Shown here: positions 4,672-24,781 of the stretch, one piece after another
Numbering within the stretch: position 1 is the first letter of the stretch
Layout: each line of letters opens with the position of its first letter
IMG/VR virus record: IMGVR_UViG_2671180444_000002
Source of the DNA: a virus
Taxonomy: Duplodnaviria > Heunggongvirae > Uroviricota > Caudoviricetes
Direction: 5' to 3' (one strand)
DNA: 25,038 nt
Position numbers and translations under genes: made by a program
The notes under the pieces: generated by a model
What the model saw: the letters and a program-made list of their open reading frames with translations, nothing else
Databases searched by the model: none
Told to the model about the DNA's origin: nothing

Positions 4672-4884
4672 NNNNNNNNNNNNNNNNNNNNNNNNNNNNN
4701 NNNNNNNNNNNNNNNNNNNNNNNNNNNNNNNNNNNNNNNNNNNNNNNNNNNNNNNNNNNNNNNNNNNNNNNNNNNNNNNNNNNNNNNNNNNNNNNNNNNN
4801 NNNNNNNNNNNNNNNNNNNNNNNNNNNNNNNNNNNNNNNNNNNNNNNNNNNNNNNNNNNNNNNNNNNNNNNNNNNNNNNNNNNN
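4672..4884. other. N-run covering the J stop, the J-lom spacer and most of lom
   Basis: 213 consecutive n. Confidence 1.
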
Positions 4885-7800: not shown

Positions 7801-8376
7801 GGTCTGTGGTGCTGTCCGGCGTCATTCTGCGCATCCGGATATTAAACGGGCGCGGCGGCAGGTTATCCACCACCACCGAGGCCAGATACTGCGAGGTGGT
7901 TTTGCCCTTAATGGTGATGTCTTTTTCCGTCACCCAGCCACCGTTACGCTGTATCTGAACCAGCAGGCGAACTTCAGACGGATTCCTGTCTCCCTTTGAG
8001 GTGGTTNNNNNNNNNNNNNNNNNNNNNNNNNNNNNNNNNNNNNNNNNNNNNNNNNNNNNNNNNNNNNNNNNNNNNNNNNNNNNNNNNNNNNNNNNNNNNN
8101 NNNNNNNNNNNNNNNNNNNNNNNNNNNNNNNNNNNNNNNNNNNNNNNNNNNNNNNNNNNNNNNNNNNNNNNNNNNNNNNNNNNNNNNNNNNNNNNNNNNN
8201 NNNNNNNNNNNNNNNNNNNNNNNNNNNNNNNNNNNNNNNNNNNNNNNNNNNNNNNNATCCACCGGACCTTCAACCGGCCCTTCGCTGATGGCATCGATCA
8301 CACTCAGCAGCTGCGTGGACTTCAGGTTGTCCTTCGCTTCGCGCGGGGTATGCCCCTTACTGCTGCCTTTACCCAT
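4885..8376 (-). CDS. J: Tail tip / host specificity protein J (central fibre); two N-runs interrupt it and the 3' end is inside the 4672-4884 gap
   Basis: N-terminus [34 protein letters not shown] at 8376; body ([20 protein letters not shown]... through ...[13 protein letters not shown]) matches lambda J. ORF-track entries 7930-8376 and 4658-7933 are the same gene split by a gap whose length is not a multiple of 3. Confidence 0.9.
8007..8256. other. N-run inside the J N-terminal region
   Basis: 250 consecutive n; reading frame before and after differs by one position. Confidence 1.
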
Positions 8377-8436
8377 TCGTCATGCTCCATAAACGATAAA
8401 ACCGCCCGGAGGCGATTTCACATAAAACATTTTGCA

Positions 8437-19464: not shown

Positions 19465-23145
<3,681 letters not shown>

Positions 23146-23171
<26 letters not shown>

Positions 23172-23691
23172 TCAGCAACCCCGGTATCAGTTCATCCAGC
23201 GCGGCTGCTTTGTTCATGGCTTTGATGATATCCCGTTTCAGGAAATCAACATGTCGGTTTTCCAGTTCCGGAAAACGCCGCTGCACCGACAGGGGGATCC
23301 CGTCGAGAATACTGGCAATTTCACCTGCGATCCGCGACAGCACGAAAGTACAGAATGCGGTTTCCACCACTTCAGCGGAGTCTCTGGCATTTTTCAGCTC
23401 CTGTGCGTCGGCCTGCGCACGCGTAAGTCGATGGCGTTCGTACTCAATAGTCCCTGGCTGGAGATCTGTCTCGCTGGCCTGCCGCAGTTCTTCAACTTCC
23501 CGGCGCAGCTTTTCGTTCTCAATTTCAGCATCCCTTTCGGCATACCATCTTATAACGGCGGCAGAGTCATAAAGCACCTCATTACCCTTGCCACCGCCTC
23601 GCAGAACGGGCATTCCCTGTTCCTGCCAGTTCTGAATGGTACGGATACTCGCACCGAAAATGTCAGCCAGCTGCTTTTTGTTGACTTCCAT
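23146..23691 (-). CDS. Nu1: Terminase small subunit Nu1
   Basis: 181 aa, MEVNKKQLADIFGASIRTIQNWQEQGMPVLRGGGKGNEVLYDSAAVIRWYAERDAEIENEKLRREVEEL..., matches lambda Nu1. Confidence 0.95.
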
Positions 23692-23900
23692 TGTTCATTC
23701 CACGGACAAAAACAGAGAAAGGAAACGACAGAGGCCAAAAAGCCCGTTTTCAGCACCTGTCGTTTCCTTTCTTTTCAGGGGGTGTTTTAAATAAAAACAT
23801 TAGGTTACGGCGAAGAAGAACGGAAACGCCTTAAACCGGAAAATTGTCATAAATAGCGAAAACCCGCGCGCCTTCCGCCCCGTAACCTGTCGGATCGCCG
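23692..23900 (-). promoter_or_regulatory. cos: cos site: cosB (R1, R2, R3 Nu1-binding repeats with an IHF-like A/T tract), cosN (cohesive-end core about 23869-23880) and cosQ-equivalent flank
   Basis: Just upstream of Nu1, colinear with the lambda left end. R elements (plus-strand text): GAAAGGAAACGACAG at about 23716-23733, CTGTCGTTTCCTTTC at about 23757-23776, GAAGAAGAACGGAAACG at about 23811-23830. Minus strand reads ...ACAGGTTACG GGGCGGAAGGCG CGCGGGTTTTCGCTATTTATGA... Confidence 0.8.
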
Positions 23901-24079
23901 GAAAGGACCCGCAAAATGATAATAATTATCATCTACATGTCACAACGTGCATCTACGCCATCAAACCACGTCAAATAATCAATTATGACGCAGGTATCGT
24001 ATTAATTGATCTGCATCAACTTAACGTAAAAACAACTTCAGACAATACAAATCAGCGACACTGAATACAGGGCAACCTC

Positions 24080-24313
24080 ATGTCAACGAAGAACAGAACC
24101 CGCAGAACAACAACCCGCAACATCCGCTTTCCTAACCAAATGATTGAACAAATTAACATCGCTCTTGTTCAAAAAGGGTCCGGGAATTTCTCAGCCTGGG
24201 TCATTGAAGCCTGCCGCCGGAGACTGTGCTCAGAAAAAAGAGTTTCGCCTGAAGCAAACAAAGAAAAGAGTGACATTACTGAATTGCTCAGAAAACAGGT
24301 TAGACCAGATTGA
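24080..24313 (+). CDS. Hypothetical 77-aa protein, probable ribbon-helix-helix DNA-binding fold
   Basis: MSTKNRTRRTTTRNIRFPNQMIEQINIALVQKGSGNFSAWVIEACRRRL...: basic N-terminal tail, short beta-strand (RNIRFP), then two helices; fold assignment is by pattern only. Confidence 0.45.
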   Translation: MSTKNRTRRTTTRNIRFPNQMIEQINIALVQKGSGNFSAWVIEACRRRLCSEKRVSPEANKEKSDITELLRKQVRPD

Positions 24314-24370
24314 AGCAATTTAGATAATCGTGCAGACTACGCCCCCTCATATCACATGGAAGGTACTACA

Positions 24371-24781
24371 ATGGCTCAGGTTGCCATTTTTAAACAAATA
24401 TTCGATAAAGTGCGAAATAATTTAAACTATCACTGGTTTTATTCTGAACTAAAACGTCACAATGTCTCACATTACATTTACTATTTAGCCACAGAGAATA
24501 TTCATCTTGTTCTTGAAAACGATAATACGGTTTTAATAAAAGGACAGGGTAAGGTTGTAAATGTAAGATTTTCAAAAAATAAATGCCTTATAGAAGCCAC
24601 CTTAAAAGGATTCAAATCAGGAGAGTTATCATTTTACGAATACAGGAAAAATCTTGCTACAGCAGGGGTTTTCAGATGGATTACAAATATCCACGAAAAC
24701 AAAAGGTATTACTATACCTTTGATAATTCATTACTCTTTACTGAGAACATACAGAACACTACACAAATATTTCCGCACTAA
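24371..24781 (+). CDS. Hypothetical 136-aa protein, possibly DUF1398 family (YbcV / lambda 'putative envelope protein'-like)
   Basis: AT-rich ORF. Shine-Dalgarno GGAAGG lies 7 nt before the ATG at 24371 ([17 protein letters not shown]...). The ORF track starts 5 codons earlier at 24356. Family assignment is from memory of size and position, not a search. Confidence 0.45.

Follow-up and report, generated by a model that had tools for sequence, protein, structure and literature searches.

The canonical lambda cohesive end, GGGCGGCGACCT, is found in phages lambda, 21, 434 and phi80. Variation in bp 7–12, the right half of cosN, is frequent among lambda-like phages: N15 and phiD326 differ from lambda at positions 9 and 12 and Gifsy-1 at positions 8, 9 and 11, and the CG pairs that flank the site are highly conserved, as is cosQ (PMC4669245). 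A further natural allele, GGGCGGCGCGCT, has been reported for LLS and mEp213 (PMC12315714). In the cosN survey of Vahanian et al. 2017, as it is cited in PMC9303873, high conservation was seen at the first four positions and at the two bases flanking either side. According to the account given in PMC4669245, many mutations in bp 7–12 have a minimal phenotype and symmetric changes in the left half are severe (Xu & Feiss 1991), this left/right asymmetry depends on closeness to cosB (Hang et al. 2001), and terminase gauges the position of its cut from the R site, at a distance of 47 ± 2 bp (Higgins & Becker 1994). In experiments, lambda TerL cleaved cosN-N15 with the same efficiency as cosN-lambda (PMC4669245). 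Natural variation of the cosN right half is thus a class known from the work of the Feiss laboratory; the allele described below, AAGGCG, is apparently undescribed in the searchable literature. A search of that literature for the string GGGCGGAAGGCG, in the forward orientation, returned no relevant paper and a single match, to an unrelated Ginkgo paper; Vahanian et al. 2017 (Virology 509:140) lies outside the literature covered by this search.

The window cosN and its neighbouring subsites

The window analyzed here is a 25,038-nt stretch of DNA from a member of the Caudoviricetes (IMG/VR record IMGVR_UViG_2671180444_000002) and is of the integrated-prophage type. To locate its cosN we aligned the reverse-complemented window with MAFFT to the lambda end junction, in which the right end of NC_001416 is joined to its left end. 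The alignment contains zero gaps across cos and places the counterpart of GGGCGGCGACCT at window positions 23880..23869 on the minus strand, where the sequence reads GGGCGGAAGGCG. The two 12-mers are the same at bp 1–6 and bp 11 and are mismatched at bp 7, 8, 9, 10 and 12, with AAGGCG replacing the lambda CGACCT in the right half; the five changes in the second half of the 12-mer that were recorded in the initial annotation are hence confirmed. Because the 16 bases to the left of the 12-mer and the 22 bases to its right (bp 13–34) match lambda exactly, the 12-mer is correctly placed, which excludes the misplacement that the same annotation had allowed for. Five substitutions within a single hexamer form an unlikely cluster under the local divergence: at 7.7%, about 0.009 such cases are expected over all windows of that size.

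The 16-bp cosN, CG + GGGCGGAAGGCG + CG, occupies positions 23867..23882 (minus strand) in the gap-free alignment to the lambda end junction, and the predicted 12-nt cohesive end within it occupies 23869..23880. By homology, the top-strand nick would fall between 23881 and 23880 and the bottom-strand nick between 23869 and 23868. The CG pairs beside both nick positions and the left half GGGCGG are conserved, giving the arrangement ACG/GGGCGG....../CG. Eight of the 16 positions of the variant cosN obey two-fold symmetry; the lambda site has 10 such positions, a count that agrees with that of Murialdo and Feiss (PMC9026076). The predicted end has the same GC content as that of lambda (10/12), and the nearest-neighbour annealing energies of the ends are −17.8 kcal/mol for the variant and −18.2 kcal/mol for lambda.

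The variant end is neither the canonical end, from which it differs by five mismatches, nor the N15-type end GGGCGGCGTCCG, from which it differs by four. The N15/phiD326 cosN is, like that of the window, a natural right-half variant and shares with it the G at bp 12, but it has only two differences from lambda (at 9 and 12), and the cosB of N15 is of the simple kind, with R3 only, whereas that of the window is complex. The Gifsy-1-type and mEp213/LLS-type sites are likewise natural right-half alleles with bp 1–6 conserved; their hexamers, however, differ from that of the window, and neither alters bp 7.

The cosQ heptamer GGGTCCT, which serves in packaging termination and lies at −30..−24 in lambda, is found at 23904..23910 (minus strand), identical to lambda and at the same distance from the nick. 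Its position is that expected of a cosQ, preceding the top-strand nick by about 17 bp (20 bp + ACG), and agrees with the curated cosQ annotation of phage 434 (OL657226). On the other side of cosN, the TerS (Nu1) binding site R3 (lambda bp 50–65; 23816..23831, minus strand) is identical to lambda at 16/16 positions with exact cosN spacing. The IHF site I1 (bp 74–86; 23795..23807, minus strand) was placed from the phage 434 annotation and shows one change, reading AAACATTAGGTTA in the window versus the annotated AAACATTAAGTTA in phage 434. The TerS binding sites R2 (bp 108–123; 23758..23773, plus strand), inverted relative to R3 and R1, and R1 (bp 151–166; 23715..23730, minus strand) are also identical to lambda, and the coordinates of R3, R2 and R1 agree with the curated cos subsites in the GenBank record of phage 434. 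A single base near lambda bp 137 is deleted between R2 and R1 (window ~23744), as it is in phage 434, and because of this deletion R1 and the Nu1 start, at bp 190 in both, are displaced by 1 bp relative to lambda. The window therefore has a complete complex cosB, with R3, I1, inverted R2 and R1 followed by the TerS gene. The initial annotation had described the flanking cos sequence as near-lambda, and this description holds; cosQ (23910..23904) lies just outside the range that it had considered.

The hexamer AAGGCG (23869–23874) also occurs as lambda bp 49–54 at the start of R3 (23827–23832; TTTAAGGCGTTTCC). A templated origin from the R3 start was considered and set aside, a 6-mer match within 200 bp having a chance probability of about 5–10%.

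Adjacent genes for a Nu1-family TerS and a lambda-type TerL follow cosB. Nu1, the terminase small subunit (181 aa; 23146..23691, minus strand; Pfam Phage_Nu1, PF07471, E = 2e-101), is identical to its lambda counterpart at 178 of 181 residues (98.3%; K48R, A75T and L132I). Gene A, the gene for the terminase large subunit (641 aa; 21246..23171, minus strand), encodes a protein identical to lambda gpA at 637 of 641 residues (99.4%; T151S, D185E, L404R and T466I), and W is identical at 68 of 68. These values bear out the earlier description of Nu1 and A as near-identical to lambda. Within the lambda-type set, no residue of Nu1 or gpA co-varies with the cosN allele. T466I is more frequent in carriers of the variant (11/14) than in the others (7/28), but is not exclusive to them. 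L404R (window 21960–21962) lies three residues from the catalytic D401 and is shared with two IMG/VR loci, L007 and L015. It is presumably harmless because arginine is the usual residue at gpA 404 in related TerLs (AGIDSQRNRYE/F in 55 loci), and it is probably a benign marker of a sub-lineage. Neither T466I nor L404R was accordingly retained as a candidate for a compensating terminase change.

Upstream of cos, two small plus-strand genes (24080–24313 and 24356–24781) are transcribed away from it. They encode a DUF3950 protein, homologous to lambda p79/YlcI, and a DUF1398 protein without a lambda counterpart; the pair is common beside cos in E. coli prophages.

Occurrence of the allele in genomes, plasmids and metagenomes

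We searched for the allele with a 44-base probe (16 + 12 + 16 bases). Because each possible 28-base megablast seed covers the whole 12-mer, every match of this probe contains the exact 12-mer. Among 5,426 complete E. coli genomes, the variant GGGCGGAAGGCG was found in 158, at 169 places, and the lambda-type GGGCGGCGACCT in 4,474, at 8,393 places. Sixteen of the variant places and 20 of the lambda-type places are on plasmids, such that the variant makes up about 2% of lambda-type cos sites overall versus 16/36 on plasmids (odds ratio ~44, shared descent uncorrected). A terminus prediction that searches for GGGCGGCGACCT would thus miss about 2% of the lambda-type cos sites of E. coli and nearly half of those borne on plasmids. 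Many of the chromosomal copies of the variant could reside in defective prophages.

Deposited phage records contain the variant twice and the lambda-type end 67 times. The two variant-bearing records are YDC107_1 (CP025712), classed as Ravinvirus, and PhiR46_1 (PV340565), with ECOR13 as its listed host and telL annotated at its first 22 bases. The status of PhiR46_1 as a propagated phage comes solely from its GenBank metadata, as no study describing it was found in the searchable literature. The ~46 kb plasmid pEC21Z151-46K, the sole such record inspected, combines a protelomerase and an N15-type replication gene with a lambda-type virion module. These N15-like phage-plasmids share with the window the exact 12-mer, a lambda-type cosB and a gpA about 99.5% identical to that of lambda, but, as prophages, they exist as linear plasmids and possess a protelomerase and telL, and their upstream flank and Nu1 haplotype are unlike those of the window.

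Variant carriers also include chromosomal prophages. That of E. coli strain 582 is annotated as intact save for an internal stop in ren, and that of APEC E14033 lies beside ybhC, near the lambda attachment site. In the APEC E14033 locus (NZ_CP126948, ~26.4–37.7 kb), the major capsid gene E is interrupted by an inserted island that carries an integrase, an Icd-like protein, a primase, its own capsid and decoration proteins and regulators, and that looks like a capsid-forming satellite.

Outside the complete genomes, we found the exact 12-mer in 41 distinct contexts in IMG/VR and in 31 contigs from metagenomes. Upstream of it, these contigs have at least 15 different sequences, and cosQ is at the unchanged distance in nearly all 31. 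Three kinds of sequence follow the variant in the metagenome contigs: a lambda-type R3 and Nu1, a TerS 93.4% identical to phage 21 gp1, and a divergent Nu1-family gene that has no following TerL and is satellite-like. As the variant occurs with lambda-type, 21-type and satellite-type genes, it has been retained across several packaging specificities. Among the IMG/VR and metagenome matches, which are mostly from cellular assemblies, no contig starts or ends at the predicted nick. The canonical lambda-type cos was also encountered in Raphidiopsis brookii, Aeromicrobium, Archangium violaceum and Alicyclobacillus plasmid assemblies (L151–L154), where it is most likely cosmid or fosmid vector or lambda DNA contamination.

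Probable function of the variant site and alternative readings

The possibility raised in the initial annotation that the site is a genuine alternative cos is the one that our data support. We put at roughly 0.85 the probability that the window contains a working lambda-type cos in which the naturally circulating right-half allele AAGGCG stands in place of CGACCT; read from its sequence, the allele is probably an ordinary alternative sticky end and not a defect. This reading is favored because cosQ, the CG flanks, bp 1–6, the cosN–R3 spacing and R3, R2 and R1 are all intact, and because all five changes sit in the tolerant bp 7–12. It is favored further by the wide occurrence of the exact 12-mer in E. 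coli genomes, metagenomes and IMG/VR, by the presence of the allele beside intact packaging modules, in the deposited PhiR46_1, in N15-like phage-plasmids and in the apparently intact prophage of strain 582, and by the lack of co-variation of Nu1 and gpA residues with the allele together with the full-length genes B to I of the window. The fall in two-fold symmetry from 10 to 8 of 16 positions counts against it. We know of no prior experimental test of this five-change combination, which includes bp 7, 8 and 10.

A mechanism modeled on lambda would account for such a site. Nu1 dimers would bind R3, R2 and R1, IHF would bend the DNA at I1, and the resulting assembly would hold gpA in place over cosN. 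Distance from R3 would be the main determinant of the bottom-strand nick, between bp 12 and 13, which would be largely indifferent to bp 7–12, and the top-strand nick would rely on the unchanged left half GGGCGG and the flanking CG. Mutagenesis in the literature, together with the natural N15 and Gifsy-1 sites, shows that the right half tolerates substitution because the cosB-anchored terminase places the bottom-strand nick, and the window allele fits this established picture, in which the cosN right half is left free to vary. The premise of the initial annotation that nicking depends on the cosN sequence thus stands for the left half and the flanking CG; it does not extend to the right half, which is experimentally tolerant according to PMC4669245. 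By homology we infer that the site is cut, and cut at the predicted positions. The virion chromosome would then be expected to bear 12-nt 5′ overhangs, GGGCGGAAGGCG and its complement, and no compensating change in terminase would be needed.

Of the other readings, the one that survives best holds that the site is a recombination joint, a hybrid cos arising from packaging between cos types or from crossing-over, with the hexamer marking the junction of two lineages. The flanks lend it some support. The 180 bp on the cosQ side (window 23881–24060, minus strand) show 100% identity both to phage 434 (OL657226), whose cosN is lambda-type, and to the prophage of strain 582, whose cosN is the variant, so that a common left flank is borne with either allele. 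In this flank, the cluster of differences from lambda at 23949–23956 (CCTCCACG to CGTAGATG) corresponds to the 434 haplotype. On the right, the Nu1 gene of the window is lambda/434-like (538/548), whereas the remaining variant carriers share another Nu1 haplotype (497/548). Because neither the left-flank nor the Nu1 haplotype tracks the allele, the hexamer assorts independently of both flanks, and recombination at or near cos has evidently moved the allele among backgrounds. Chromosomes with mismatched ends, which can cyclise and then segregate either cosN allele (Feiss et al., PMC4669245), may offer one route for moving it. The window is, however, collinear with lambda on both sides of the hexamer, with no indel or loss of homology, and the hexamer is a fixed, widely shared allele and not novel junction sequence. 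A joint would explain how the allele has moved, but neither its identity nor its function, and we judge it improbable that the hexamer is itself one. What endures of this proposal, which the initial annotation had also entertained, is the movement of the allele between backgrounds.

Less probable still, to the point of being very unlikely, is that the cos of the window is defective and the prophage decaying, with the hexamer as mutational damage in an element that is no longer packaged. Five of the 12 positions do depart from the canonical end and the symmetry of the site is lowered. The window also has an apparent break in J, which is seemingly split between two frames. This break proved to be an artefact and was discarded as a sign of decay: the window contains masked runs of N at 1101–1390 (290), 4672–4884 (213) and 8007–8256 (250), and the last of these, 250 bases long, stands where lambda J has 248 bases, which makes J seem frameshifted between residues 40 and 124. 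The packaging, head and tail genes are intact, those from B through I being full length and 94–99% identical to lambda, and we found no private lesions, broken packaging or morphogenesis genes or lost critical cos subsites. Decay would moreover not spare all of the critical positions while altering only the tolerant hexamer, nor does it sit well with the repeated appearance of an identical 12-mer in hundreds of independent contexts that keep cosQ and the flanks, with its presence in phage-plasmids as well as in a deposited phage, or with the annotation as intact of relatives that carry it. The initial annotation had listed a decaying prophage among its explanations; the working cos with an alternative right half is the reading that these observations favor. 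Finally, a sequencing or assembly error at this GC-rich site, and with it the suspected misread of the canonical end, can be dismissed despite the masked N runs in the window, as 158 complete E. coli genomes contain the exact 12-mer, as do metagenomes and IMG/VR contigs from unrelated projects.

Diversity of the cosN right half

To place the AAGGCG allele among other right halves, we carried out six scans of IMG/VR, each anchored solely on cosQ, ACG, GGGCGG and the distal CG and each excluding a single position. Together they give a complete enumeration of the non-lambda right halves; alleles were counted as distinct 350-bp contexts. The commonest non-lambda form is the N15-type CGTCCG (58 contexts), followed by the window allele AAGGCG (41 contexts), CAGCGT (34 contexts), which differs at positions 8, 9 and 11 as Feiss describes for Gifsy-1, and GAGCGG (13 contexts). 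Beyond these four commonest forms there are more than 25 rarer right halves, for a total of at least 30 alleles in IMG/VR. Of the Gifsy-1-type and mEp213/LLS-type alleles, GGGCGGCAGCGT occurs 34 times and CGCGCT four times in the same database. The window site belongs to this class of natural right-half variants, its changes being confined to bp 7–12 with bp 1–6, the CG flanks and cosQ conserved. We had considered that AAGGCG might have arisen as a block change without intermediates, but this is contradicted by the full enumeration, which contains rare intermediates between the lambda form and AAGGCG, namely CAACCT, CAGACT, CAGGCT, CAGGCG and AAGGCT. The catalogue of at least 30 alleles provides a natural series with which to study mismatch tolerance in cyclisation and the limits of exchange among lambdoid elements and their satellites.

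The right-half alleles might also define compatibility groups of cohesive ends and so restrict productive exchange among co-resident elements, an idea that we regard as speculative and rather doubtful. It is conceivable because lambda and AAGGCG ends mismatch at 5 of 12 positions and a 2-bp end mismatch already lowers yield about 4-fold (PMC4669245). If it is correct, a chromosome with one lambda end and one AAGGCG end should fail to cyclise, and a differing hexamer would give a phage, phage-plasmid or satellite partial isolation from recombination and cross-packaging with the abundant lambda-type cos in the same host. The enrichment on plasmids, of which at least some are N15-like phage-plasmids, together with the existence of several discrete common alleles whose intermediates are rare, would then reflect selection and not drift or clonal descent. 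As it stands, the plasmid enrichment could be due either to such a compatibility effect or to clonal descent of one successful phage-plasmid lineage.

The IMG/VR scans also returned five satellite-like loci (L197, L229, L221, L226 and L233) that have two directly oriented cos sites, separated by about 2.5 kb. The paired sites bracket an ORF for a ClpP-protease::capsid fusion (PF00574 + PF25209), and a short Nu1-family gene follows the second of them. The cosN alleles of the pair are unlike each other in L197, L229 and L221, as for example GGGCGGGAGCGG and GGGCGGCAGACG.
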